The notes: generated by a model from the sequence alone, not told the origin. A stretch of 64,000 nt of DNA from Pseudomonadota bacterium (GCA_043821645.1 JBDRCO010000087.1:64001-128000); one strand, 5' to 3'; numbered from the stretch's first letter, positions 3,015-16,953 are shown. A program made the numbers and translations.

Positions 3015-4073
3015 ATGCGATGCATCAGAATAAGTAGTCTTGCCCTGATCCTGTGTGGCGCCCTCGCCTGCAGCGAGGACTTCGGCTTCAACCTGATCCA
3101 GAACCCCCAGGTCGACAAGGTCGAACCGGTGGAGGGCCCCACCAAGGGCGGCCAGCGCATCACCATCACCGGCGAGCATTTCATCGAGAACACGCAGATC
3201 CTTTTCGACGACAAACCCTGCCGGGACATCGTCATCAAGAGTGAGACCGTGATCGAGTGCTTGACCCCCGTGCACGACGCCGGCGCGGCCGTGGTCAAGG
3301 CCAAGCACGAGAGTTCAGGGGAGGGTGACCGTACGGCCACCTACACCTTCATCCCGCCCCCCGAGTTCAGCCTGCACCCTGGCGATCAGGTGGGCTTCAA
3401 CGTGGTCAACCTCAACTACTGCCCGTCGGACTTCTGCACGCCCGACAACGAGCAAGAGGTCGCCTGGCGCTCGCTGTGGATCATCCAGGAAGACGGCGTG
3501 GCCCTTTCCGAGACCACGGGGCAGTGGGAGGTCCGGGCCAGCTACTTCCATCAGGTCATCGAGGGCGCCAGCGATCCTGCGGCTGTCGCCACCACCTGGC
3601 TCTCTGCCTACGGGCCCTATGACCAGGCTGCGGACTACGTCGACGAGGGCGTGGGCACCTACACCACCTCGGTCCCGCCCGTCCCGGACCTGGGCGGCGG
3701 CGCGGTGTCCTTTCCCTTCTTCGACATGACCAACTTCGATGTCGCCGAGCTGACCTTTCGCAACGCCGTCAAGGCCCTCGACAGCGAGGCGGCCTTCGAG
3801 AGCCAGCCGGCGTCGCGACGGCTCGAGGCGTACTACGTCGACAGCGGCACGCCGCGGCTGGCACACCACGTGCTCATCGTCTTTCACTCGGTGGGCATCG
3901 TGTGCATGATGACCGAGGAGATCGCCGAGGCCAGCAGCAGTCCGTCCCGCAGCCAGGGCGACTTCACCGGCGTGCTCATCACACCCAAGTCCAACCTGGC
4001 CTTCCCCTGGGTGCAGCGCGTGGCGGGGCAGAAGAAGTTCTGCAACTGTGCGTCGGACACCGGCTGCGAGTGA
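3015..4073 (+). CDS. Putative lipoprotein with N-terminal IPT/TIG domain and unknown C-terminal domain
   Basis: RBS GGAG before ATG 3015; lipobox-like LILCGALAC; IPT motif PVEGPTKGGQRITITGEHF...IECLTP. Confidence 0.75.
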   Translation: MRCIRISSLALILCGALACSEDFGFNLIQNPQVDKVEPVEGPTKGGQRITITGEHFIENTQILFDDKPCRDIVIKSETVIECLTPVHDAGAAVVKAKHESSGEGDRTATYTFIPPPEFSLHPGDQVGFNVVNLNYCPSDFCTPDNEQEVAWRSLWIIQEDGVALSETTGQWEVRASYFHQVIEGASDPAAVATTWLSAYGPYDQAADYVDEGVGTYTTSVPPVPDLGGGAVSFPFFDMTNFDVAELTFRNAVKALDSEAAFESQPASRRLEAYYVDSGTPRLAHHVLIVFHSVGIVCMMTEEIAEASSSPSRSQGDFTGVLITPKSNLAFPWVQRVAGQKKFCNCASDTGCE

Positions 4074-4101
4074 GACCCCGCGCCACCATGAGGTTGTTGC
4101 C

Positions 4102-4755
4102 TTGACCACACCGCTGTCTGCCGTGTTTTTTGATCTCGACGGCACGCTCATCGACACCCGCGGCGACCTGCACGACTGTGTCAACGCCTTGCGCGCGAGC
4201 TACGGAATGTCACCGCTCACCGTGAATCGCACGGTCGAGGCCGTGGGGCACGGCATCGAGCACCTGGTCTCGGGTGTGCTCAGCACCACGGACAGCGCCG
4301 AGATCGCCGAGGCTGTCGAGCGCTTCCGGGAACACTACCTGGCCCACTGCACGGACAAGACCGAGCCCTATCCGGGGGTGGGCGAGCTCCTCAAGGCCCT
4401 GCACGAGCGCGCGATCAAGGTGGCGGTGGTCACCAACAAACCTCAGCACCACGCCGAGCGCATCCTCGAGGCGCTGCAGCTGCCGACCGATCTGGTGGTC
4501 GGTGCCTCTCCTGAACGTCTCCCCAAGCCCGACCCGGCCATGCTGCTGGAGGCCGCACGCCGGCTCGAGGCGGACCTGCATCGCAGCATCTACGTCGGTG
4601 ACATGGAACTCGATCTCGAGGCAGCCCGGGCCTGCGACTGCGCCTTCGTGGGTGTCGATTTTGGCTTTACCAGCGAGTCGTCGCTGCCTCACCGCACGGC
4701 CGTGTGCGTCGACACCGTTGAAGCGCTGCAGCGTGCGCTGCTCGAGCGCGCCTGA
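4102..4755 (+). CDS. HAD-family hydrolase, phosphoglycolate phosphatase-like
   Basis: FDLDGTLIDT, VVTNK, KPDP, YVGDMELD motifs; TTG start at 4102 chosen over ORF start 4048. Confidence 0.85.
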   Translation: MTTPLSAVFFDLDGTLIDTRGDLHDCVNALRASYGMSPLTVNRTVEAVGHGIEHLVSGVLSTTDSAEIAEAVERFREHYLAHCTDKTEPYPGVGELLKALHERAIKVAVVTNKPQHHAERILEALQLPTDLVVGASPERLPKPDPAMLLEAARRLEADLHRSIYVGDMELDLEAARACDCAFVGVDFGFTSESSLPHRTAVCVDTVEALQRALLERA

Positions 4756-4797
4756 CCGCCCGCATCGATCCCGCACCGCGGCTCGCGACTCCCCCCC

Positions 4798-5571
4798 TCA
4801 GGCTGCCCGGGCAGGCCCCAGCAGGTAGTCGCCGGCCATGCTGCCGTCGCTGAAGAGGTTGAAGCAGCGCAGCGTGGTGGTCTCGAAGCGCCAGTCCGTC
4901 ACCTCCATTCCGTCGAGGTCATAGACCGGGTTGGCGGCGAAGGTGTGATGAGGTGTGCGTTGTGGGAGCAAGGTGTCGGGCAGGGGCATGCCGAGACAGC
5001 GCCTCAGCACGGCCCGGCGCACGCCGAGCTGCTGCAATCCTGCCAGAAGACGTGGGATCTCGTCGAGATTGCGGTGCGTGACCAGGACCGAAACCTTGAT
5101 TGGGATGCGGCTTGCGAGGAGCAGGTCTCCGAGATCGAACAGGCGCCCACCCCCGGTCATGGCACGGTAGGTGTCGAACTCGAGCGAAGGCACGGACACG
5201 GCGGCGCGGTCGTAGAGGTGGAACAGGGCGAGGTGAGACAGCGCGAGCTGACCATTGGTGTGCAGCGATAGACGAACCCCGGGGATGCGACGGCGCAGCG
5301 TGTGGACCAGGGCTTCCTGGTGTCTGTAGAGCATGGGATCCGTGTTGCTGCCGGTCAGGGACAGCTCGCGGACGCCCTCGCGCACCAGCACCGCGCAGAA
5401 GGCGGCCAGGTTGCGCGGTGGAAACAGGCCGAGGTTGTCAGGCCGTCGAGGGCCTAGCTGGCGACCGATGCAGTCGGGACAGCGCAGGTTGCAGCGCCCA
5501 CTGAACAGGATGTTGGCGAAGGCGGGTTCCTGGCGTGGGCAATCACTGGCTGGCTCCCTCGCGGTCATCAT
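4798..5571 (-). CDS. Small radical SAM protein of unknown function
   Basis: CxxxCxxC (CNLRCPDC), SLTGSNTDP in place of GGEP, SLHTNG; RBS GAGGAG upstream of ATG 5571. Confidence 0.85.
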   Translation of the reverse strand: MMTAREPASDCPRQEPAFANILFSGRCNLRCPDCIGRQLGPRRPDNLGLFPPRNLAAFCAVLVREGVRELSLTGSNTDPMLYRHQEALVHTLRRRIPGVRLSLHTNGQLALSHLALFHLYDRAAVSVPSLEFDTYRAMTGGGRLFDLGDLLLASRIPIKVSVLVTHRNLDEIPRLLAGLQQLGVRRAVLRRCLGMPLPDTLLPQRTPHHTFAANPVYDLDGMEVTDWRFETTTLRCFNLFSDGSMAGDYLLGPARAA

Positions 5572-5641
5572 CCCCGTCTCCTCTCGCCCGTCTGGCGGAC
5601 TCCACCGAGCTGTTTCCTGCCCATCGCAGGGTGTCCTCACC

Positions 5642-7108
5642 TCACAGGGACAGCAGGTGCTGCTGGACCTGCGCCGAGTAGAACAGGGCGATCACGCCAT
5701 TGAAGTGCTGCGCGCCATGCTCGGTGAGCGCCAGGCAGTCACCCCGGCTCTCCATCAGCCCGCGTTCCTGCACGAAGCCCAGGACCGCCGGAAAGGCCTG
5801 CTCCAGGGTCTGGCCGAAGCGCGCCGCAAAGGACGGGCGATGGATCTCACCAAAGTAGAAGGCCACCGAGACCATCTTGGCCATGGCCTCGCTGCGTGGC
5901 AGCCAGTACAGATCCTGGATGGGCAGTCGCCGCGCGTCGACGGCGTCGAGGTAGCCGTCGAGCCGCTTGCTGGCCGCACCCAGGTTGTAGCCCAGCGCGT
6001 TGTTGGTAAAAGTCTGCGCGCCCAGGCCCAGGCCCAGGTAGGGGCCACCGTGGACCACGCGCTCGGTGAGGTAGGCGCTGGTGCCTGGGTCGCCGGCCAC
6101 GCGGCTGAAGCCGTTCTTGCCCGGGTTGGCGTGGTAGCCGTGCTCGGCGAGCAGGGCCCGCGCTGCGAGGTACATCGCCATCACGCGCTCGAGGGGGATG
6201 TCCGAGGCCTCACCGCGCACCTTGGTGCCCTTGTAGCGCATGCGGTACAGGGTGATGACCTCGGGATCCAGGGCCAGGGTGTGGCGCAGGGTGGCCAGCA
6301 CGTCCTCGACCGTCTGCTTGGCGAAGCCGTACATGACATCGATGTTGAAGCTCTCGAAGCCGGCGGTGCGGATGTTGTCGACGGCCCGGCGGTTGAAGGT
6401 CACGTCGTTGAGGTCCCGGCCGTACTCGCGCAGCAGCCGCGGGTTGGCCATCTGCAGGCCCATGGAGATGCGGTGGATGCCGGCGATCTTGAAGGCGCGC
6501 AGGGTGTCGGGGCACAGGGCCGCGATCTTGGGCGTGGTCTCGATGCTGATGCCGTATCCCTCGCCGAGGCGAAAGCCCCCGTGCACGCGCTCGACCAGGG
6601 TCGCGATGTGCCGCGGTTGTACCAGCGAGGGCGTGCCCCCGCCGATGTCGAAGCCAGCCAGGGTGTGCTGGCCGCGGCCGAGCAGGTCCAGGTACAGGTC
6701 CAGCTCGCGCAGCAACGCCGCCATGTAGCGCTCCTCGTCCTGGGGCACGTGCCTGTCCAGCACCGTGTATTCGCAGAAGCTGCAGCGGCGCTCGCAGAAG
6801 GGCACGTGGGCGTACAGGCTCATGCTCGGGCTCGCCTCCAGGGCTTGGCGCAGGATGGGTGCGTACTGGTCCTCGTCCACCCGGTGCTGCCAGATCGTTG
6901 TGCGGTGGGCGATGGGGTAGGCGGTGTTGGCCAGGTGGTGCTGACGCAGGCCCGCCTCGAACACCTCCTCGGGCAGTGGCCGGACCACCGCGTCCTCGGC
7001 CCGCCACGGCAGCACGCTGGCCGGGCGTACGGCGCTGTCCTGGCACCCCGGCGAACCGCTCTCGCTTTGCAGCGTGTTCCGGCTGTCGCTGGCGTGTTCG
7101 CTCTTCAT
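5642..7108 (-). CDS. HemN-like (class C-type) radical SAM protein
   Basis: HVPFCERRCSFC, GGGTPS, RISMGLQ, NIDVMYG, YLGLGLGA, HemN-like C-terminal domain; RBS AAGGAGG before ATG 7108. Confidence 0.88.
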   Translation of the reverse strand: MKSEHASDSRNTLQSESGSPGCQDSAVRPASVLPWRAEDAVVRPLPEEVFEAGLRQHHLANTAYPIAHRTTIWQHRVDEDQYAPILRQALEASPSMSLYAHVPFCERRCSFCEYTVLDRHVPQDEERYMAALLRELDLYLDLLGRGQHTLAGFDIGGGTPSLVQPRHIATLVERVHGGFRLGEGYGISIETTPKIAALCPDTLRAFKIAGIHRISMGLQMANPRLLREYGRDLNDVTFNRRAVDNIRTAGFESFNIDVMYGFAKQTVEDVLATLRHTLALDPEVITLYRMRYKGTKVRGEASDIPLERVMAMYLAARALLAEHGYHANPGKNGFSRVAGDPGTSAYLTERVVHGGPYLGLGLGAQTFTNNALGYNLGAASKRLDGYLDAVDARRLPIQDLYWLPRSEAMAKMVSVAFYFGEIHRPSFAARFGQTLEQAFPAVLGFVQERGLMESRGDCLALTEHGAQHFNGVIALFYSAQVQQHLLSL

Positions 7109-7121
7109 GGTGTCCTCCTTC

Positions 7122-7142
7122 ATTGGTTACAATATAACCAAA
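7122..7142. promoter_or_regulatory. Candidate NrtR operator 1
   Basis: Palindrome TTGGTTA-CAATA-TAACCAA overlapping the -10 box and predicted start site. Confidence 0.7.
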
Positions 7143-7159
7143 CAAGAAAGAGCTGTCAA
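7131..7159 (-). promoter_or_regulatory. Sigma70-type promoter for the radical SAM operon
   Basis: Minus strand TTGACA (7159-7154), 17-nt spacer, TATATT (7136-7131), in an AT-rich spacer. Confidence 0.8.
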
Positions 7160-7212
7160 CAGGAACTGCTCAAGAGGTAAATAGTGCTTGATTTTCGATT
7201 CATTGGCGCTAG

Positions 7213-7233
7213 TTTGGTTCAGAAGAAATCAAA
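7213..7233. promoter_or_regulatory. Candidate NrtR operator 2 (autoregulatory)
   Basis: TTTGGTT-CAGAAGA-AATCAAA, same geometry as operator 1, between a possible TTGATT-N16-TAGTTT promoter and the nrtR RBS. Confidence 0.6.
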
Positions 7234-7239
7234 GGAGAG

Positions 7240-7929
7240 ATGGTGGTAAAGCGATCTCTCGAACGACCCATCCTGGCGGTGGACGTGGTGCTGCTGGCCC
7301 TGCGTGAGAGGGTGCTGTGCGTGCGCCTGCAGCGGCGCCAGGCCGAGCCCTTCACGGGAGCCTGGGCGCTGCCGGGAGTGGCGGTTCGCGTCGACGAGAC
7401 CCTCAAGGATGCGGCGCGCCGCGCTCTAGCCGAACGCGGAGAGCTGGCCCCCGAGGCGCTGGGCCGGGTTCACCTCGAGCAGCTGAGCACCTTTGACGCC
7501 CTGTTTCGCGACCCCCGGGGGCGCACGGTCAGCGTCGCCTTCCTGGGTCTGACCCGGGACGGGAACGAGGATGGTGTCGGAGCCCGCTGGCGAGCGGTCG
7601 AGGCGCGTGGCACGGGGAGGCTTCCCTTCGACCATGACGCGATCCTCACCGCAGCCCTGGATCGGCTGCGCGGCAAGCTGCGCTACACCAACATCGCGCG
7701 CCAGCTCCTTGATGAGCCTTTCGGTTCCGAGGCCTTGCGCGCCGTGTACCAAGGCGTGCTGGGGCGGGCGCTCAATCGCTCCAATTTTCGCGAGAAGCTG
7801 GTGCGCATCGGCCTCATCGAACGCGTTGGTTTGTCGGAAGGGGCTTCGGGTGCACGCGGTGGGCGGCCCGCGCACCTGTATCGCTTCACCCGCCGTGGCG
7901 TCGAGGCCGAGGACAGGGATTTCGTTTGA
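7240..7929 (+). CDS. nrtR: NrtR-family Nudix/winged-helix transcriptional regulator
   Basis: AVDVV..., WALPG, EQLSTF, RDPRGRTVSVAF, LPFDH, LRGKLRYT, wHTH NRSNFREKL...GGRPAHLYRF. Confidence 0.9.
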   Translation: MVVKRSLERPILAVDVVLLALRERVLCVRLQRRQAEPFTGAWALPGVAVRVDETLKDAARRALAERGELAPEALGRVHLEQLSTFDALFRDPRGRTVSVAFLGLTRDGNEDGVGARWRAVEARGTGRLPFDHDAILTAALDRLRGKLRYTNIARQLLDEPFGSEALRAVYQGVLGRALNRSNFREKLVRIGLIERVGLSEGASGARGGRPAHLYRFTRRGVEAEDRDFV

Positions 7930-8003
7930 CGCTACGCGTTGCCCGACCGCTTCGTGTCGGTTAACGTGCGCCGCCGTCACGTGAATGGCACGGAGGATCA
8001 GCT

Positions 8004-9578
8004 GTGAGCGACACCGCACAGGACCAGGACGTTCGTCAGGGCCAGCTCGAGCGCCTGCGCAGCACCCATGCCCAGGCCGAGGCGGGGGGTGGCCAGGACC
8101 GCATCCGTAAACAGCACGAGGTCGGCAAGCTGACCGCGCGGGAGCGCATCGACCTCCTGCTTGACGCCAAGAGCTTCGTCGAGCTCGACAAGTTCAAGAC
8201 CCATCGCTGCACCGACTTCGGCATGCAGGACAAGAAGATCTTTGGCGACGGAGTCGTCACCGGGCACGGCCTGGTCGACGGACGGCGCGTGTTCGTCTTC
8301 GCCCAGGACTTCACCGTCTTTGGTGGCTCGCTGTCCGGCGCCTTTGCCGAGAAGATCTGCAAGGTGATGGACCTGGCCATGAAGGTTGGCGCCCCGGTCA
8401 TCGGCCTCAACGACTCGGGCGGTGCGCGCATCCAGGAGGGCGTGGTCAGCCTCGGAGGGTACGCCGACATCTTCCTGCGCAACACCCGGGCTTCGGGCGT
8501 GGTGCCGCAAATCTCGGGTGTGTTCGGACCCTGTGCCGGAGGCGCGGTGTACAGCCCCGCCATCACCGACTTCATCGTGATGGTCAAGGACACCAGCTAC
8601 ATGTTCATCACCGGTCCCGACGTCATCAAGACCGTGACCCACGAGGAAGTGAGCAAGGAAGCGCTGGGTGGCGCCATGACCCACAACACCAAGAGCGGTG
8701 TCGCCCACTTTGCTGCGGAGGGCGAGGCCCAGGCCATCAAAGTGATCCGCGAGCTGCTGAGCTACTTGCCCCTGAACAACAGCGAGGACCCGCCGCGCAT
8801 CCCCTGCAGCGACCCCGTGGACAGGCGCGACGACAGTCTCAAGACCGCGGTGCCCACCAACCCCAACAAGCCCTACGACATCCGCACCGTGGTCAAGGCC
8901 GCGCTCGACGAGCACCTGTTCTTCGAGGTGCACGAGCACTTCGCCAAGAACATCGTGGTCGGCTTCGGCCGCCTGCAGGGCCGCAGCGTCGGCGTGGTGG
9001 CCAACAACCCGGGCTTCCTGGCCGGCTGCCTGGACATCGATGCCAGCGTCAAGGGTGCGCGCTTCGTCCGTTTCTGCGACGCCTTCAACATCCCTCTCAT
9101 CACTTTCGTCGACGTTCCCGGCTTCTTGCCCGGCACAGATCAGGAGTATGGCGGCATCATCAAGCATGGCGCCAAGCTGCTGTACGCCTTCGCCGAGGCC
9201 ACGGTGCCCAAGATCACGGTGATCACGCGCAAGGCCTACGGTGGGGCCTATGACGTCATGGCCTCGAAGCACATCCTGGCCGACGTCAATCTGGCCTTCC
9301 CCACGTCCGAGATCGCAGTCATGGGCCCGGACGGCGCGGTCAACATCGTGTTCCGCCGGGAGCTGGATGGCGCCGCCGATGCGGTGGCCGAGAAGGCGCG
9401 ACTGGTCCAGGACTATCGCGAGACCTTTGCCAATCCTTACAAGGCGGCCGAGCTGGGCTACATCGACGCGGTCATCGAACCACAGGACCTGCGTCCATCG
9501 CTGTGCGCGGCCCTCGACATGCTGGCCAACAAGCGCGAGGACCTGCCGCCCAAGAAGCACGGCAACATTCCCCTGTGA
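8004..9578 (+). CDS. pccB: Acyl-CoA (propionyl-CoA) carboxylase, carboxyltransferase beta subunit
   Basis: [64 protein letters not shown]. Confidence 0.95.
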
Positions 9579-9626: not shown

Positions 9627-10148
9627 TCAGCTGACCCCGGCGCTCAGCACCACGTCCGGAAACAGCTCGCGGTGATCCCTGGTCTCGCGGCTGGCATCCA
9701 TGGTGGCCACCACCACCTCGTAGGGGATGTCGGGCTCGGCGGCGATGATCAGACGCGTCTCTTCGGGAAAGGCGTCCTTGATCGTGGCCAGGCGCTGGCC
9801 CAGGGCTGCCCAGTCGTAGTCGCCGCTCGCCGTCCGCGGCACCGTGGGCTGACGTGGCGAGGGACTGCCCTGTTCCGGTCCCAGCGTGGCGCCGGAACTG
9901 GCGAGGGTGAAGCCTCCATCGCTGATGAGCACGGTCAGGCGAAGCTCGGGCGGGGTGGGCTGCGCTGGGCGCGCCTCGCGATCAGGCCCGAGCTGCGGAG
10001 CCGAGACATTGATCACCGTGATCTCGACGAAGGCCGCGGTGATCAGGATGGCCGGGATGAGCATGAGCACCAGGTTCATGATGGGGATGAGGTTCAGCTC
10101 GCTGTCGGGCTCGGCAGCACGGTGCCGACGCTGGGACGGTCTGGCCAT
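9627..10148 (-). CDS. ExbD/TolR-family biopolymer transport protein
   Basis: ELNLIPIMNLVLMLIP TM segment, periplasmic IIAAEPDIPYEVVVATMDA; RBS AAGGAG. Confidence 0.85.
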   Translation of the reverse strand: MARPSQRRHRAAEPDSELNLIPIMNLVLMLIPAILITAAFVEITVINVSAPQLGPDREARPAQPTPPELRLTVLISDGGFTLASSGATLGPEQGSPSPRQPTVPRTASGDYDWAALGQRLATIKDAFPEETRLIIAAEPDIPYEVVVATMDASRETRDHRELFPDVVLSAGVS

Positions 10149-10307: not shown

Positions 10308-10634
10308 GTGCTGCCCGGCCCCATCGACTGGGAGAACCCACCCTCGACGCGCGTTCGCGCGCGCAACTCGGGCCCGCGCCTGGGTGTGGACGCAGTGGTG
10401 TTCGTGGCCTGCAGCACCATCCTGTGGATCCTGGTGGGAGCGCTGGTCGGCACCGATGGGATCAGCGCCAGCGGTGTGCGTCGCTACCTGGTCGAGGGCC
10501 TGGGGGGCTCGACCTTCTTGCTATGGGGCGTCACCGCCGTGGTGGCCCTGGCAGCTCTGTATGCTCTCATCGATGCCCTGCGCGCCCTGGCCGAGCAGGG
10601 GCGTGCGCAGTCCCGGACAGGAGGCCATTCGTGA
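10308..10634 (+). CDS. Small two-TM hypothetical membrane protein
   Basis: RBS AGGAGG before GTG; two hydrophobic helices; stop overlaps the next start (GTGA). Confidence 0.65.
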   Translation: MLPGPIDWENPPSTRVRARNSGPRLGVDAVVFVACSTILWILVGALVGTDGISASGVRRYLVEGLGGSTFLLWGVTAVVALAALYALIDALRALAEQGRAQSRTGGHS

Positions 10635-12154
10635 AGCAGCCCCAACCCCCCTTTCGCAAGGTGCTCATCGCCAACCGCGGCGAGATCGCGGTGCGGGTCA
10701 TGCGCAGCTGTCGTGAGCGCGGCGTCAAGACCGTGGCCGTTTACAGCGACGCCGACCGCGCGGCCCTGCACGTGCGCTTTGCCGACGAGGCCTATCACAT
10801 CGGTCCATCGCCCAGCCGTGACAGCTACCTGGTGGCCGAGCGCATCCTCGACGTGGCCAAGAAAAGCGGTGCCCAGGCGATACACCCGGGCTACGGTTTT
10901 CTGTCCGAGAATGCGGGCTTTGCCCAGGCTGTTGCTGACGCCGGGCTGGTGTTCATCGGCCCCCCCCCGGCCGCCATCGAGGCCATTGGCCACAAGACCC
11001 GGGCGCGGGAGCTGATGGACAAGGCCAACGTGCCCGTGGTGCCGGGCACCACCAGCCCCATTGCCGACGTGGCAGAAGCTCTGAAGATCGCCCGGGACAT
11101 AGGCTTCCCGGTGATGCTCAAGGCAGCAGCAGGTGGCGGCGGCAAGGGCATGCGCCGCATTGACAAGGAAGAGAAGTTCAACAAGGCCTTCGAGGCGGCC
11201 AGCCGTGAGGCCGTCAGCTCCTTTGGCGACGGAGCGGTCTACCTCGAGAAGTTCCTCGAGAAGCCGCGCCACGTCGAGATCCAGATCTTTGCCGATGGCC
11301 ACGGCAACGCGGTGCACCTGTTCGAGCGCGAGTGCTCGGTGCAGCGTCGGCACCAGAAGATCATCGAGGAGTCGCCCTCGTGCGTGGTCGACCCGGAGAT
11401 GCGCCGGCGCATGGGTGAGGTGGCGGTGCAGGCGGCCCGGGCCGTGGGCTACGTCAACGCAGGGACGGTCGAGTTCCTGGTCGACGCGCACCGACACTTC
11501 TACTTTCTCGAGATGAACACCCGGCTGCAAGTCGAGCATCCGGTGACCGAGTGGATCACCGGCCTCGACCTGGTCAGCCTGCAGCTCGACGTGGCAGCGG
11601 GACTGCCCCTGCCCCTGGAACAGATCCCGACCGCGCCGCGGGGACACGCCATCGAGGCCCGCATCTACGCCGAGGACCCCTATCGCCAGTTCTTGCCGCA
11701 GCCGGGTCGTATCGACCACCTGCGGGTGCCCACGGGCCCCTTCGTTCGCGACGACAGCGGTGTGTACCCGGGCAGCGAGGTCACGCCTTTCTACGACCCC
11801 ATGATCGCCAAGCTCAGCGTGTGGGGCACCACCCGCGACCAGGCCATCGCGCGCCTGGACAGGGCTCTCGAGGAATACACGGTCAAGGGTCTGACCACCA
11901 ACATCGCCTTCTTGCGCCAGGTGCTGGCCAATGAGGTTTTTCGCAGCGGCGAGTACGACACCGGCCTCATCGAACAGCACATGGACCTGATCCGCCCTTC
12001 TGTCGACGAGGCGAAACGCGACGTGGCCCTGCTGGCCGCGGCACTGTTCGCGCACAACGAGGCCGCGCGCGTGGCGTTGCCGCAGGCGGCGCAGAGCAGC
12101 GGTCGCAGCACCTGGCGCCGCGTGACCGCCATGCACCGCAACACGAGATGGTGA
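10631..12154 (+). CDS. accC: Biotin carboxylase subunit of acyl-CoA carboxylase
   Basis: KVLIANRGEIA, IHPGYGFLSEN, KAAAGGGGKGMR, RECSVQRRHQK, EMNTRLQVEHPVTE, YDPMIAKL. Confidence 0.93.
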   Translation: MKQPQPPFRKVLIANRGEIAVRVMRSCRERGVKTVAVYSDADRAALHVRFADEAYHIGPSPSRDSYLVAERILDVAKKSGAQAIHPGYGFLSENAGFAQAVADAGLVFIGPPPAAIEAIGHKTRARELMDKANVPVVPGTTSPIADVAEALKIARDIGFPVMLKAAAGGGGKGMRRIDKEEKFNKAFEAASREAVSSFGDGAVYLEKFLEKPRHVEIQIFADGHGNAVHLFERECSVQRRHQKIIEESPSCVVDPEMRRRMGEVAVQAARAVGYVNAGTVEFLVDAHRHFYFLEMNTRLQVEHPVTEWITGLDLVSLQLDVAAGLPLPLEQIPTAPRGHAIEARIYAEDPYRQFLPQPGRIDHLRVPTGPFVRDDSGVYPGSEVTPFYDPMIAKLSVWGTTRDQAIARLDRALEEYTVKGLTTNIAFLRQVLANEVFRSGEYDTGLIEQHMDLIRPSVDEAKRDVALLAAALFAHNEAARVALPQAAQSSGRSTWRRVTAMHRNTRW

Positions 12155-12705: not shown

Positions 12706-15700
12706 TCAGGTTCCCCCACCGAGGCAGGCGAGGTCCCAGCGTCCGGGATCCTCGACGACGGCGCCACCACCATCCTGTATCCAGACGAACACGCTGCGAG
12801 GTCCGGGGGTGGTGTCGCCGAACACGTGGCTGGTCGATCTCGAGGCGGACCACCCGGGATCGAGTGTGGTCGGTGGGGGCCATGCCGTCTCGTTGACCAG
12901 CCAGCTTGCGGCCCCCTCGTCCCAGTCCACGGCCAGGTCCACGGTGTCGCCCGAGAATTCCAGCTCGCTGCCCGTGCTCGGGTCTGCGGCAAAGACCCGC
13001 GGGCCGCCGTGGTGCCGGAACTCGAACACCCCGTCGGTCTCGACCCAGGGATCGCCATGCTGGGTGTAGCCGCCCACCAGCACCACGCTGCGTCGCACCG
13101 GATCGCGGATCAGGCCGAACATGCCCCGGTCGGCCAGGTTGGCGGCGTCGGAGCGCAGGCGCTGGCCCGTGTCCAGGTCGAGCAGAAAGGTGCGCTGGGT
13201 CTGACCAGCGGTCGGCCCGATGTAGCTTCCGTACTGGACGATGTGGCCGCTGGCGTCATCGCGGGCAGCGGACACATCCTGGAAGTCGCTCACCCCGGTC
13301 ACGGCGACGTGCGGGCTGGTGGTGACCGCCGCGGCATCGAAGTCGAACAGGGCGCTTCTCGTCGAGAACAGAGGGCCGGTGGCGCCCAGGGCCGGTAACA
13401 GGCTCCCCCTGCCCTGGGTGTAGCCCGTGAAGGCCGAGACCTGCGTCCAGGTGGCGGTGGCCAGGTCGAAGGCCATGGGATCGTGCACGCTGTCCGCGGT
13501 CCAGATGTAGTAACGGCCCACGATCCATCGATCTCCCGCGGCGTCGTGCAGGCTGGGTGCGAAGGTCCGCTTGGGTGCGGATCCCGTCGTGGTCACCCGG
13601 GTCCAGTCCAGGGTGGCCAGGTCCAGGGCCCAGGTGTCCTGCGGGTACTGCTGGGTCCCCGGGTTGTAGAACCCTCCCGTGACGACGAGCCTGTCCCGGG
13701 CCTCGTCGTAAAGGGCCATGGCGCCGCCGCGGCCGTGGGGCACGGTGTCGGTGGCCGCCGGCAGCAGCATCCAGGTGTTGGCGACGGAGTCGTAGGCGTG
13801 CACACCGCTTTGGTAGTTGCTGCTGTAAAAGCCGCCATACAGGAGCAGCTGACCACGGCTGCTGTCGTAGGCCAGGGCCGAGCTGTAGCCGACCCGCGTG
13901 GGGAGCTTGGCCAGGGCATGCCAGCGCGCCGCCGTGCGCTGGAAGAAGAAGTGCGTCTGCACCCAGTCCGAGGTGTTGGGCGGCGTCCAGGCGTCCTGGC
14001 CTCGGATGCAGACGGTGTACAGGCGACCCGGCGTCAGGACGTCCGGATCAAAAAGGGAACTGTCGCCGGTCAGGCCATCCACGCTGAAGAGATCACCTGT
14101 GCAGTCGCCGTCGGCGGACGAGATGCGAAGATCGACCGTCACGGGCAGGGACAGATCGTTGGCGGTCCAGGTGACCTGTGGCAACGCTGCCGAGACCACC
14201 GCGTCTTTGGTGGCGATGCCGAAGCCCATTCCGGGTGGTGACACATCGCGGTAGAACACGGTGGCCTGTCCGGCCTGGGACAGCTGACCGGCGGCATCCA
14301 TCACCCAGGTGTACAGCGTCACGTCGCCGGGAGGCACCTGCAGGAAGATGTTCTGCACGGGAGCCAGGGTCGGGGGGAATACCTGTGGATCGGGCGGCGC
14401 GGGGTTGGTGCTGACGAAAAAGCCCTCGATTCCCTCGAGGGGTGCCTCGAGGGCCACGCTGACCTGACCGGTCTCGCTCAGCCCCGGCTGCAGTTGGCCG
14501 AGAGCGTCGACACCGTAGACCGTGACCTCGGGCGCTGGGGGTGGATCAGGCAGGTACCAGATCGATGCCACGCCGGGCACGGGGCCCACGCCGCCATTGG
14601 CGTAGCGCAACCACAGGCTCCGTCGCTTGAGTCCGGCGGCACCCTGGAGAGTGGTCGAGGTGGGCGGCGTCGGTGACCAGCGCGAGTCTGTTGGTTCCGG
14701 CCGGAGCTCGTCGTTGCTCAACAGCCAGGCCGTGGCTTCCGCGTCGCCGGACACCCTGACCATCACCTCGAGAACGGGGGTGCCGTCCGCCGAGCCGCTC
14801 GTGGCATCGAGGAGCGTCAGCACCGGCCAGGCGTCGGGCTCGAGGACCAGGCCGGCGGTGCCTCCCTCGACGTCATCGCCGGCGGCGGTCCAGTAGGCGG
14901 CGCGCGGGGCCTGCCACAGGCCGGTGCGCGCGTACGGAGTGTGGAAGGATGTTCTGCTGGACGGTTGCCAGGCATCCCATTGCACGTTGAGGGGGTTCCA
15001 GGTCCGGAACTCGCCCATGTGGCCACCGATGAGAAGCGGGACATCGAGGGCCGGGAACGCGTGAATCACGCTGTTCCCTGGCGTGCTGGCACCGGTGGCG
15101 ACCCAGCGCTCCTGGGCGGCGTCGTAAAGTGCCGTCGAAGGCACCCATTTGTCGTCGAGGCCCAGATGCAGGTAGCTGCTCGACCCGGTGATGCGATGCA
15201 GGACCTCCGTGATGCCGATGGCCGCGAGCGTGCTGTCCACACCGAGTCCGTGCAGCAGCGCAGGCGAAACCGATCGCTCCAGCGCCAGCATCCGGGTCTC
15301 CCGGGGCTGCAGCGTCGAGCGCGCCACCAGCACGCGATCGGCCTCCGGGTCCGAAGCCAGTGTCGAGCCGCTGCTTCCGTCGTTCGTCGCACCGCCATCG
15401 GTGGGCTGCCCAGCGTCGAAACCTGTGCTCTGCGTCGGGAGCGGGTTCCAGGTCCGATTGCCGGGGTCCACGATGGCGAGGTAACGGACCTCAGTCCCCT
15501 CGCCAGTCACGCCGCCGGAGCCTGATATGAGAGCCGCGACCACGTCGCCATGCACGGGATCGACGGCCAGATCCTCGACGGAGGCCTGCTGGATACTCGC
15601 CTCGGACCCCGTAGTGCGACGCAGGCTCCAGCGCTCGCTGTGGAGGTCGAAGATCCAGTGGTAGCCCAGGTCATGGCGACCCCAGCTGTCCGCGCCGTAG

Positions 15701-16953
15701 GGGATCACCAGCGCGGCCGCGACGGTGTCACCGAACAGGGCAAAGCGTGAGGAATAGCCCACCGCAGGACTCGGGCGACCCACGCGCAGGCGCTGGCGCA
15801 GCCCGCGCACCGGCAGGCGCGAGGGTGTGCTCCAGTCCGAGGTCGGGTGCACGCCGTCGCTGGCGCGCACACACCAGAACACCGTGTTGCCCAGGCCCAG
15901 GCCCGCGTCGATGCCCACCTGTGTCCAGGTCTCGCCGAGGCTGTTCACCAGGAGCACGTCGCCGCTGCAATCGGGACCCGAGGACAGGGCGAGCTCGAAG
16001 TTCGCGGGCGCCGAGCCCGAGCCTGCCCAGCTCCAGCGCAGGGTGGGTGTGGTCGTGCTCACGGGCCAGCTGTCCGGGGGATCCAGCGGTGTCGGGGCAT
16101 CGAGCGGTGCCAGCGTGCACACACCGGGGTCTGCCTCGACATGATCCGGACAGCACCCGCTGGCCACACACAGGCCGCAGCCGTCGTCATGAAAACTCTG
16201 GGCGCAGGTTCCGACTGGAACGCAGGTATCGCCCCCGCCGTCGTGGAAGCCGGCGATGCAGGCTCCGTCGGGCAGACAGGATCCATCGCCGCCGTCGTGG
16301 TAGCCGGCGACGCAGGTGCCCTCGGGCATGCAGGCTCCGTCGCCGCCGTCGTGGTAGCTCGCGATGCAGGTTCCGTCGGGCAGGCAGGAGTTGTCGCCAC
16401 CGTCATGGTAGCCGGCGATGCAGGTTCCGTCGGGCAGGCAGGCGCCATCGCCGCCGTCGTGGTATCCGCTGAGGCAGGTTCCATCAGGGAGGCAGCTGCC
16501 GTCACCACCGTCGTGGAAGCCCAGGGCGCACGTGCCGACGGGAACACAGGTCCCGTCGCCGCCATCGTGGTGTGTGACCGGACAGCCCGCGTCCTCGACG
16601 GTGGCGTCGTTCGCATCGTCTCTCGCGCCGTCGCGGAGGTCCTCGGAAGCGGCGTCCAGGGCGATGACCGCGTCCGCTGCCGCGGCATCTGCTCCATCGA
16701 AGGGACCCGTGTCCATCACCTGGCCCGTGTCGTCCAGGCTCTCCAGATCGAGCGGGGTCGTTCGATCGGTGGTTGTCCGGTCCCCGATCGCGGCATCCAG
16801 GGTCACCGTCGATGCGTCGAGATGAGGCTGCGTGACCGCGGCGTCCGGCACCTCGGGCACGGGTCTGTGCTGGAAACCGCTGCGTGTGCAGGAGGAGGTG
16901 AGGATGGCAGGAATGGTGAGCCACACCAGGTGGCATGAAATCCTACAGCGCAT
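12706..16953 (-). CDS. Large surface lipoprotein: Asp/Ala stalk, Cys-rich tandem repeats, FN3-like modules, Kelch-like beta-propeller
   Basis: Lipobox-like AILTSSC; HDGGDG repeats; TPTLRW...WCVRASDG...SDWS; Kelch-like LLLYGGF, LVVTGGF, VVLVGGY. Confidence 0.8.
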   Translation of the reverse strand: MRCRISCHLVWLTIPAILTSSCTRSGFQHRPVPEVPDAAVTQPHLDASTVTLDAAIGDRTTTDRTTPLDLESLDDTGQVMDTGPFDGADAAAADAVIALDAASEDLRDGARDDANDATVEDAGCPVTHHDGGDGTCVPVGTCALGFHDGGDGSCLPDGTCLSGYHDGGDGACLPDGTCIAGYHDGGDNSCLPDGTCIASYHDGGDGACMPEGTCVAGYHDGGDGSCLPDGACIAGFHDGGGDTCVPVGTCAQSFHDDGCGLCVASGCCPDHVEADPGVCTLAPLDAPTPLDPPDSWPVSTTTPTLRWSWAGSGSAPANFELALSSGPDCSGDVLLVNSLGETWTQVGIDAGLGLGNTVFWCVRASDGVHPTSDWSTPSRLPVRGLRQRLRVGRPSPAVGYSSRFALFGDTVAAALVIPYGADSWGRHDLGYHWIFDLHSERWSLRRTTGSEASIQQASVEDLAVDPVHGDVVAALISGSGGVTGEGTEVRYLAIVDPGNRTWNPLPTQSTGFDAGQPTDGGATNDGSSGSTLASDPEADRVLVARSTLQPRETRMLALERSVSPALLHGLGVDSTLAAIGITEVLHRITGSSSYLHLGLDDKWVPSTALYDAAQERWVATGASTPGNSVIHAFPALDVPLLIGGHMGEFRTWNPLNVQWDAWQPSSRTSFHTPYARTGLWQAPRAAYWTAAGDDVEGGTAGLVLEPDAWPVLTLLDATSGSADGTPVLEVMVRVSGDAEATAWLLSNDELRPEPTDSRWSPTPPTSTTLQGAAGLKRRSLWLRYANGGVGPVPGVASIWYLPDPPPAPEVTVYGVDALGQLQPGLSETGQVSVALEAPLEGIEGFFVSTNPAPPDPQVFPPTLAPVQNIFLQVPPGDVTLYTWVMDAAGQLSQAGQATVFYRDVSPPGMGFGIATKDAVVSAALPQVTWTANDLSLPVTVDLRISSADGDCTGDLFSVDGLTGDSSLFDPDVLTPGRLYTVCIRGQDAWTPPNTSDWVQTHFFFQRTAARWHALAKLPTRVGYSSALAYDSSRGQLLLYGGFYSSNYQSGVHAYDSVANTWMLLPAATDTVPHGRGGAMALYDEARDRLVVTGGFYNPGTQQYPQDTWALDLATLDWTRVTTTGSAPKRTFAPSLHDAAGDRWIVGRYYIWTADSVHDPMAFDLATATWTQVSAFTGYTQGRGSLLPALGATGPLFSTRSALFDFDAAAVTTSPHVAVTGVSDFQDVSAARDDASGHIVQYGSYIGPTAGQTQRTFLLDLDTGQRLRSDAANLADRGMFGLIRDPVRRSVVLVGGYTQHGDPWVETDGVFEFRHHGGPRVFAADPSTGSELEFSGDTVDLAVDWDEGAASWLVNETAWPPPTTLDPGWSASRSTSHVFGDTTPGPRSVFVWIQDGGGAVVEDPGRWDLACLGGGT
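16153..16584 (-). repeat. Intragenic tandem repeat, about 8 x 54 bp
   Basis: 18-aa unit C-x-x-G-(Y/F)-HDGGDG-x-C-(L/V/M)-P-x-G-T repeated 8 times, last copy degenerate. Confidence 0.9.

Follow-up and report, generated by a model that had tools for sequence, protein, structure and literature searches.

The DNA analyzed here is a 64,000-nucleotide stretch from a Pseudomonadota bacterium (GCA_043821645.1, JBDRCO010000087.1:64001-128000), referred to below as the window. At positions 4798–7929 it carries nrtR, a gene for an NrtR-family regulator, on the plus strand and, divergent from it on the minus strand, an operon of a HemN-like radical S-adenosylmethionine (SAM) enzyme followed by a small radical SAM enzyme. 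We tentatively read the three genes as an NrtR-repressed radical SAM module of pyridine-nucleotide (nicotinamide adenine dinucleotide, NAD) metabolism, and give this reading somewhat less than an even chance. It draws on the conserved pairing of the two enzymes, a candidate operator over the operon promoter, and NAD genes found with relatives. The features of the unit were as follows.

7240–7929, plus strand: nrtR, NrtR-family regulator, 229 aa (Pfam NUDIX and NrtR_WHD)
5642–7108, minus strand: HemN-like radical SAM gene, first of the operon, 488 aa (Radical_SAM and borderline HemN_C)
4798–5571, minus strand: small MoaA/viperin-like radical SAM gene, 257 aa (Pfam Radical_SAM)
7131–7159, minus strand: sigma-70-type promoter of the radical SAM operon, TTGACA-17-TATATT, 11 of 12 consensus positions
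7122–7142, no strand: candidate proximal NrtR operator, 21-bp palindrome with the core TTGGTTA-N5-TAACCAA (7123–7141), 0 mismatches
7213–7233, no strand: distal degenerate candidate NrtR operator TTTGGTTCAGAAGAAATCAAA, core copy at 7214–7232 with 3 mismatches
7114–7120, minus strand: putative ribosome-binding site (RBS) AAGGAGG, 5 nt before ATG 7108 of the HemN-like gene
5578–5582, minus strand: putative RBS AGGAG, 6 nt before ATG 5571 of the small radical SAM gene

The window has approximately 67% G+C and therefore many long spurious open reading frames (ORFs). ORF listing and translation, combined with Pfam and NCBIfam scans, gave three family-supported ORFs within 4798–7929, and their coordinates and identities confirmed the divergent arrangement described in the initial annotation. 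The longest ORFs of the two enzymes were 5642–7123 (minus strand, 493 aa) for the HemN-like gene and 4798–5640 (minus strand) for the small gene, and the control region between the longest ORFs was 116 bp. The HemN-like gene is predicted to start at ATG 7108; the in-frame ATG 7123, inside the candidate operator, is probably unused. The small gene likely starts at ATG 5571, behind AGGAG.

The two radical SAM enzymes and their pairing

The HemN-like enzyme was matched by Pfam Radical_SAM (53.7 bits) and, at the borderline, by HemN_C (23.2 bits, cutoff 24), a domain that is precomputed on many of its relatives. The top NCBIfam model was that of the STM4012 family (NF006067; 178.8 bits, cutoff 380), aligned nearly end to end (96–489 of the enzyme to 31–422 of 427). 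Also below their cutoffs were HemN TIGR00538 (138.6 bits, cutoff 324.95), HemW (125 versus 205.4), ChuW/HutW (119 versus 400), and HemZ (101.7 versus 321.4). The AlphaFold2 (AF2) model (pLDDT 90.8) has the full HemN fold, with E. coli HemN (1olt) by far the best match (Foldseek E 7.7e-28, TMt 0.77, 430 columns), and sequence profiles matched HemN (E 5.3e-24) and NocN (9p2u; E 3.4e-18). The cluster motif CERRCSFCEY (CX3CX2C) is preceded by a conserved Y-x-H-x-P-F, and CxxxCxxCEY was present in 40 of 40 aligned relatives, without the fourth cysteine of HemN. True HemN has CX3CX2CXC, the fourth cysteine standing directly after the cluster motif; since it is absent here, the enzyme is, judged by its motif, closer to the HemW/class C methyltransferase branch than to true coproporphyrinogen dehydrogenase.

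With HemN, HemW, and the class C methyltransferases (1olt; NocN 9p2u) the enzyme thus shares the full-length fold and the CX3CX2C motif, whereas it scores below all curated cutoffs, lacks the fourth cysteine, and has a strictly conserved radical SAM partner. To our knowledge, none of those enzymes needs such a second partner. The function of the STM4012 family is itself unassigned, and an STM4011-type partner was not detected here (no model match at E ≤ 10). Databases name both enzymes only as 'radical SAM protein', 'MoaA' or 'coproporphyrinogen oxidase'.

The small enzyme was matched by Pfam Radical_SAM at 32.7 bits, and its best NCBIfam match was MoaA TIGR02666 (41.6–41.9 bits against a cutoff of 284). 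The only invariant cysteines of its family are C27, C31, and C34, a single CX3CX2C without auxiliary-cluster cysteines, and Pfam gave no match to a Mob_synth_C domain. The top PDB folds for the AF2 model (pLDDT 91.4) were MoaA (TMq 0.71–0.73) and then viperins (TMq 0.54–0.59), an order repeated by the family profile (E about 5e-7 to 1e-6). By these comparisons the protein is a MoaA-like core without the second cluster: it shares the core with MoaA, is about 80 residues shorter and lacks Mob_synth_C, while its likeness to viperins is limited to the core. The PADLOC match to pVip was weak (E 5.4e-4, 17.5 bits).

Relatives were collected by a profile-guided scan of one genome per species (185,579 species) with two peptide patterns, which gave 87 stretches with relatives of the small enzyme; of these, 80 were retained as loci. 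By phylum label, 42 were from Chloroflexota, 6 from Myxococcota, 6 from Spirochaetota, 5 from Acidobacteriota, 4 from Vulcanimicrobiota, and the rest from others. A HemN-like gene stood upstream on the same strand in 77 of the 80 loci; the exceptions were two contig ends and L080, the most diverged member. The first conserved motif of the small enzyme lay a median of 31 nt past the HemN-like stop, and at most 124 nt past it in 60 of 71 loci measured (six loci without the motif pattern used were not counted), a spacing that implies frequent overlap or abutment of the two genes. End-to-end fusions of the HemN-like and small enzymes were found as P0124 (734 aa), P0250, P0254, and P0257, and truncated ones as P0122, P0246, and P0265. 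Judged by gene order, the two enzymes are an obligate pair; the fusions and the gene overlap are also what suggests their physical association. Searching 1.84 billion representatives with the profile returned 6789 proteins at E ≤ 1e-3, 348 at ≤ 1e-10, and 114 at ≤ 1e-30.

Some loci depart from the common layout or are labelled doubtfully. In three Chloroflexota loci (L018, L028, and L077) 1.8–2.7 kb are inserted between the HemN-like and small genes, in the interval from about 5300/6200 to 7950. In the Leptospirales loci L022 (8696–9631, minus strand) and L029 (8745–9491, minus strand) a convergent Lipid_desat (PF10520) gene directly follows the small radical SAM gene. We considered and rejected a third conserved small gene downstream, as the ORFs of about 128 aa were common only to the close relatives L020, L027, and L030 or were GC-rich artefacts. 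The HemN-like proteins of L051 and L052 are identical, and these loci come from bins of the same project named 'Candidatus Uhrbacteria' and 'Deltaproteobacteria', with 56–58% G+C. At least one of the two labels is probably wrong, so occurrences of the pair in the candidate phyla radiation call for caution.

The regulator, its candidate operators and the reach of the linkage

The nrtR product was matched by Pfam NUDIX (36.0 bits, cutoff 21.1) and NrtR_WHD (42.4 bits, cutoff 27) and has the architecture of the NrtR family, an N-terminal Nudix-fold domain and a C-terminal winged helix. The NCBIfam equivalog NtrR (NF050029) scored 97.8 bits against a cutoff of 400, and the protein was taken as a family member and not as the named equivalog. 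Its best profile match in the PDB was AraR (5bs6; E 1.1e-21, over 12–220), and Shewanella NrtR (3gz5) was matched at E 7e-18 over 7–215. Eleven orthologues beside the pair were 37–59% identical to the window protein, with a mean column identity of 57%. The Nudix box is degenerate and reads R-A-L-x-E-K where Nudix enzymes have their catalytic signature, which fits a sensor rather than a hydrolase. By family analogy, its effector would be ADP-ribose or a related NAD breakdown product.

The perfect palindrome at 7123–7141 extends over the −10 box and over the point where transcription of the radical SAM operon is expected to start. It occurs once in the 64 kb and was also picked up as inverted repeat I1. 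With up to 3 mismatches allowed, the core pattern had 2 matches in 64 kb (0.13 expected), both in the nrtR/HemN-like intergenic region, and the listed promoter was the sole promoter-like site within 4600–8100 (0.3 expected). Together with the recurrence of the enzyme pair in 77 of 80 loci, the count of operator matches speaks against a chance arrangement. The distal candidate operator lies immediately upstream of the nrtR RBS, which suggests autoregulation of nrtR. Such a layout resembles the classical autoregulated repressor divergon, in which NrtR would bind both sites and respond to its effector; the NrtR control claimed earlier has in silico a plausible candidate operator over the operon promoter. 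In addition, a perfect 7-nt inverted repeat (GAGAGAT/ATCTCTC, 12 nt apart) at 7235–7260 spans the nrtR RBS and first codons and may affect nrtR translation.

Palindrome-constrained expectation maximisation on eleven nrtR/HemN-like intergenic regions gave the consensus TTTnnTTA-N5-TAAnnAAA, usually with one site beside the operon RBS and one beside nrtR. Position weight matrices (PWMs) were then applied in a leave-one-out manner, the matrix being built from the other loci with sister loci excluded. In each of the 11 cases (10 loci and the window), the two top sites of the whole locus were inside the nrtR–HemN-like intergenic region, and the two candidate operators were the two best PWM sites in all 64 kb of the window. 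According to the main text of the NrtR survey, most NrtR sites are 21-bp palindromes, and ADP-ribose frees NrtR from DNA in vitro (Rodionov 2008, PMC2330246). The core of the window operator is TT-N7-AA, compared with the GT-N7-AC quoted there for NrtR sites and present at L080.

The distribution of nrtR was followed on a tree (quick IQ-TREE, LG+G4) of the window and 68 of the 80 loci, 69 HemN-like sequences in all; the 12 remaining loci, whose genes were split, short or missing, were excluded. The clade of the window (13 rows, SH-aLRT 100) had NrtR in 11 rows; of the other two, L010 is cut at a contig end and L037 is without NrtR. A second clade of 19 rows comprised Leptospirales, Myxococcota, Acidobacteriota, and Vulcanimicrobiota, and a third of 37 rows comprised Chloroflexota and had no conserved partner. 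NrtR was beside the pair in none of the 56 tree rows outside the clade of the window. Counted over loci with readable upstream sequence, it was present in 10 of 70, all in one clade and assigned to Acidobacteriota, Myxococcota, Moduliflexota/KSB3, and unassigned bins. By gene context, then, NrtR control marks one clade, which spans at least three phyla, and is not a property of the whole family. The linkage that the initial annotation expected was found between the two radical SAM homologues, and for NrtR in this clade only; a pair defined by NrtR did not hold, the regulator being absent from the Chloroflexota and Leptospirales clades. Further conserved neighbours were not found in the clade of the window.

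In the second clade, a flavoprotein resembling CoA-disulfide reductase was directly upstream in 9 rows. With L029, which is outside the tree, it was upstream in 10 loci: L009 (4896–6548), L011, L021, L022, L029, L032, L046, L049, L050, and L071. The flavoprotein is 540–615 aa long with a rhodanese-like tail, and in most of the 10 loci its stop is at or within a few nucleotides of the HemN-like start. Of 9 readable sequences only 4 have the redox cysteine, and the catalytic cysteine of rhodanese is missing. The flavoprotein may act as a dedicated electron donor that depends on NAD(P)H.

NAD genes around relatives and competing explanations

In 8 loci of the clade of the window, a gene for an HxGH nucleotidyltransferase of 230–240 aa was directly downstream of the small enzyme. 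Its profile matched NadD best in the PDB (E 6.2e-7), followed by NMNAT and PPAT, and the protein has invariant HxGH and ISSTxxR-type (SS(T)xxR) motifs and a NadD-like C-terminal G-L-Y-R. It shares these motifs and the top profile rank with NadD/NMNAT but is a very divergent in-operon partner, reaching E 6.2e-7 at best and scoring far below all NCBIfam NadD/NMNAT cutoffs (e.g., 32 bits versus 240); an Atlas search with it returned only 'cytidylyltransferase-like' clusters. NadD-like proteins fused to the small enzyme were found in P0121 and P0123. In 3 Acidobacteriota loci, the NadD-like gene is followed by a gene for a NadD-like::NAD-kinase protein of 460–477 aa, with a 7-nt overlap in L001. 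Many ORF calls in the GC-rich loci were spurious and hid real genes, and this gene was found only by homology.

The diverged L080 locus, labelled Saccharibacteria, has a full-length member of the small-enzyme family (hhalign probability 100, E 5.1e-46) and no HemN-like partner. The member is located between pncA-pncB-Nudix and nrtR-nadE-nadD-phosphatase, and in front of it is a 21-bp palindrome, TTAGTGT-N7-ACACTAA, with a GT-N7-AC core. Among the best 150 representatives of the profile search, P0313, P0318, and P0384 are small-enzyme-Nudix-HAD fusions. The same set holds two giant ORFs, P0326 (4008 aa) and P0371 (2927 aa), which read NadD-like, HAD, NadE, PncB, PncA, radical SAM, Nudix, HAD, and Nudix, the NadE part being CN_hydrolase plus NAD_synthase. 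They are either NAD-pathway polyproteins or gene-calling read-through, possibly with another genetic code. Polyprotein or artefact, as read from the sequence they show collinear NAD-salvage clusters that contain the small radical SAM family. Histidine-phosphatase-family genes (alpha-ribazole-phosphatase-like) follow the small enzyme in L062 (8765–9349, plus strand) and nadD in L080 (12167–12826, plus strand); together with the HAD fusions they suggest a phosphatase step in the pathway of some lineages.

The initial annotation had described a self-contained three-gene system without an adjacent NAD gene. In this genome the unit does consist of three genes and is without one, whereas for relatives the description failed: their NadD-like, NadD::NAD-kinase, and L080 pncA/pncB/nadE/nadD genes point to NAD metabolism. 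The module therefore seems to belong to NAD metabolism, which is also the classical theme of NrtR, and not to stand alone as a system induced by a signal.

As we picture it, the NrtR-type repressor would bind the two 21-bp palindromes, one over the operon −10/+1 and one before its own gene, and keep the operon silent for as long as its Nudix-like domain is free of a nucleotide effector, by analogy ADP-ribose or a related NAD breakdown product. The small MoaA/viperin-like enzyme would then abstract hydrogen from a substrate expected to be of nucleotide type, given that nucleoside triphosphates are the substrates of its best fold neighbours, MoaA and the viperins. The HemN-like enzyme would add a second radical step, methyl transfer or oxidative decarboxylation/dehydrogenation as in its relatives. 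Together they would make or remodel a nucleotide-type precursor, which would be passed to a NadD-type adenylyltransferase, encoded in the same operon in relatives and presumably supplied in trans in this genome. We infer the effector, substrate, and reaction; the anatomy, conservation, fusions, operator position, and NAD-gene context were read from the sequence.

A new source of the pyridine moiety and the salvage, repair or derivatisation of a pyridine nucleotide fit equally well, and any specific reaction is much less probable than the general reading. One such reaction, which we regard as rather improbable, is an oxygen-independent entry into pyridine nucleotides. The small enzyme would rearrange a ribonucleotide, and the HemN-like enzyme would finish the ring by C-methylation or oxidative decarboxylation. 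Rebuilding of heterocycles from nucleotides has precedent in ThiC, BzaF, and MoaA. The product would be a nicotinate-type base or mononucleotide, which Nudix and HAD proteins would trim; alternatively, PncB, NadD, NadE, and NadK would carry it to NAD(P) or to a new NAD-like dinucleotide. ADP-ribose would signal NAD consumption, upon which NrtR would switch the route on.

Several observations weigh against a role in NAD metabolism. The best solved relative of the regulator is the arabinose sensor AraR, its score is far below the NCBIfam NtrR cutoff, and going by these matches it may respond to an effector other than ADP-ribose. Because the operator motif is rich in AT and the genomes are rich in GC, base composition may explain part of the PWM signal, and the PWM training sites were drawn from the same intergenic regions as those tested. 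Homologues of the NadD-like protein were absent from the 64-kb window at E ≤ 10. Most loci have no NAD gene near the pair, and the 56 tree rows outside the clade of the window yielded none. The L080 salvage cluster and the Nudix-HAD fusions belong to a sister type of about 32% identity with no HemN-like partner nearby, and the NAD context of this diverged type may not transfer to the pair. Finally, a check of 16 among the 80 loci, 8 from each of the two non-NrtR clades, found no riboswitch or other regulatory hint beside the pair; an FMN riboswitch (83.4 bits) at L023 14558–14724 (minus strand) is approximately 6 kb off the pair and unrelated to it.

In an unlikely alternative, the pair would be a housekeeping one unrelated to NAD (e.g., cofactor, quinone, lipid or RNA modification), one clade would have acquired an NrtR-family regulator with another ligand, and the NadD-like neighbour would be a nucleotidyltransferase of that other pathway. 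In its favour are the lack of NAD genes beside the pair in the Chloroflexota (37 rows) and Leptospirales/Vulcanimicrobiota (19 rows) clades, a CoA-disulfide-reductase-like upstream partner in 10 loci, an AraR best match in a family that includes sugar sensors, and a NadD-like protein below every NCBIfam cutoff. Against it, NAD is indicated by five independent signals, namely NrtR, the in-operon or fused NadD-like protein, NadD::NAD kinase, the L080 cluster, and the giant salvage ORFs, and NadD and NMNAT head the profile matches of the nucleotidyltransferase. That the unit is a stress or anti-phage module, a possibility raised earlier, is improbable and found almost no support. ADP-ribose from NAD-cleaving defence enzymes would lift NrtR repression, and the viperin-like and HemN-like enzymes would make a modified chain-terminating or signalling nucleotide. 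The fold neighbours of the small enzyme do include CTP-bound viperins, the weak pVip match agrees with this, and among the Atlas feature neighbours are clusters in which the few members with a classification are phage. MoaA is nevertheless the better structural match, and PADLOC had no match for the HemN-like enzyme. No tblastn homologue was found in 50,697 phage records or 72,556 plasmids, and the viral fold matches in BFVD were to generic radical SAM proteins (TMq ≤ 0.67, 11–19% identity). The neighbours are housekeeping genes, no conserved defence gene was seen in the flanks examined, and in the large clades the pair tracks host phylogeny.

For two further roles the resemblance of the HemN-like enzyme to named families is the starting point. 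A haem-related role of the pair, in which one enzyme would be a HemW-type haem chaperone or an oxygen-independent coproporphyrinogen dehydrogenase and the other its helper, is very improbable. The modelled full-length HemN fold and the database name 'oxygen-independent coproporphyrinogen III oxidase' given to relatives would suit it, but the scores are below the HemN, HemW, HemZ, and ChuW cutoffs, the fourth cysteine is missing in all 40 relatives, and the flanks examined had no tetrapyrrole gene. Some loci are, moreover, labelled candidate phyla radiation (bin labels uncertain), bacteria that generally lack haem pathways. We give hardly any credence to the maturation of a ribosomally synthesized and post-translationally modified peptide, as by other two-radical-SAM cassettes. 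STM4012 as the top NCBIfam model (178.8 bits) and SkfB and SuiB among the distant fold matches of the small enzyme hint at it; yet the STM4012 score is under the cutoff of 380, the small enzyme has no STM4011 match even at E ≤ 10 and no SPASM or twitch cysteines, and no conserved precursor peptide, protease or exporter is beside the pair, the small downstream ORFs being unconserved beyond close relatives.

Flanking genes, known NrtR regulons and significance

The unit is flanked by the two genes listed here.

4048–4755: HAD phosphatase, convergent, flanking the radical SAM operon
8004–9578, plus strand: carboxyltransferase, mmdA/PCC-beta-like (810 bits), 75 bp past nrtR

Homologues of either gene were not found in the 80 related loci (E < 1e-5), and the unit in this genome was accordingly taken as three genes. 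The window HAD phosphatase was considered as a counterpart of the HAD domains in the sister-type fusions and rejected (no match at E < 1e-3). The carboxyltransferase could be co-transcribed with nrtR; an oppositely oriented ExbD-like gene (9627–10148, minus strand) separates it from a biotin carboxylase gene (10424–12154, plus strand). The other neighbours at 1–17 kb were genes for an ABC ATPase, MgtE, a TIG lipoprotein, ExbD, the biotin carboxylase, and a Kelch protein, the last being a 1415-aa ORF at 12706–16953 (minus strand) with Kelch/beta-propeller repeats. No NAD-salvage or sugar-catabolic gene was among the neighbours within 1–17 kb, and no Rfam family was found in the 64-kb window.

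The unit resembles the NrtR NAD regulons described in the main text of Rodionov 2008 (PMC2330246) in the Nudix and winged-helix domains, the divergon layout, and the 21-bp palindromes in the shared control region, and relatives of the pair carry NadD-type, pncA/pncB, and nadE genes as those regulons do. It differs in that the regulated genes are two radical SAM enzymes, a target absent from the NrtR targets given in that text. From Streptomyces, Kineococcus, Frankia, Proteus, and Hahella, the same source reports nrtR<#>nrtX-nrtY divergons without an assigned function. As its main text is silent on the identity of nrtX and nrtY, these are one possible precedent; none of the 80 loci was from those five genera. 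In the literature searched, no paper was found that combines NrtR with radical SAM or joins HemN-like radical SAM enzymes with NAD biosynthesis, and none of the papers listed for pncA/pncB/Nudix dealt with radical SAM, in agreement with the earlier statement that such a regulon had not been described. The NrtR regulon presented here, with a new enzyme module as its target, would be previously undescribed.

The biosynthesis and salvage of NAD are usually regarded as fully mapped, and we know of no radical SAM enzyme in either, nor did the literature searched contain one. Because its members are strictly paired, occur widely, and are connected with NAD genes through regulation, operon structure, and fused domains, the present family is a candidate for a missing reaction, which may be an alternative source of the pyridine ring, the salvage or repair of a damaged or unusual pyridine nucleotide, or the synthesis of a modified dinucleotide. 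A large and mostly unassigned subgroup of HemN-like proteins would gain a partner protein and a physiological context, and the NrtR regulon would be extended to radical chemistry.

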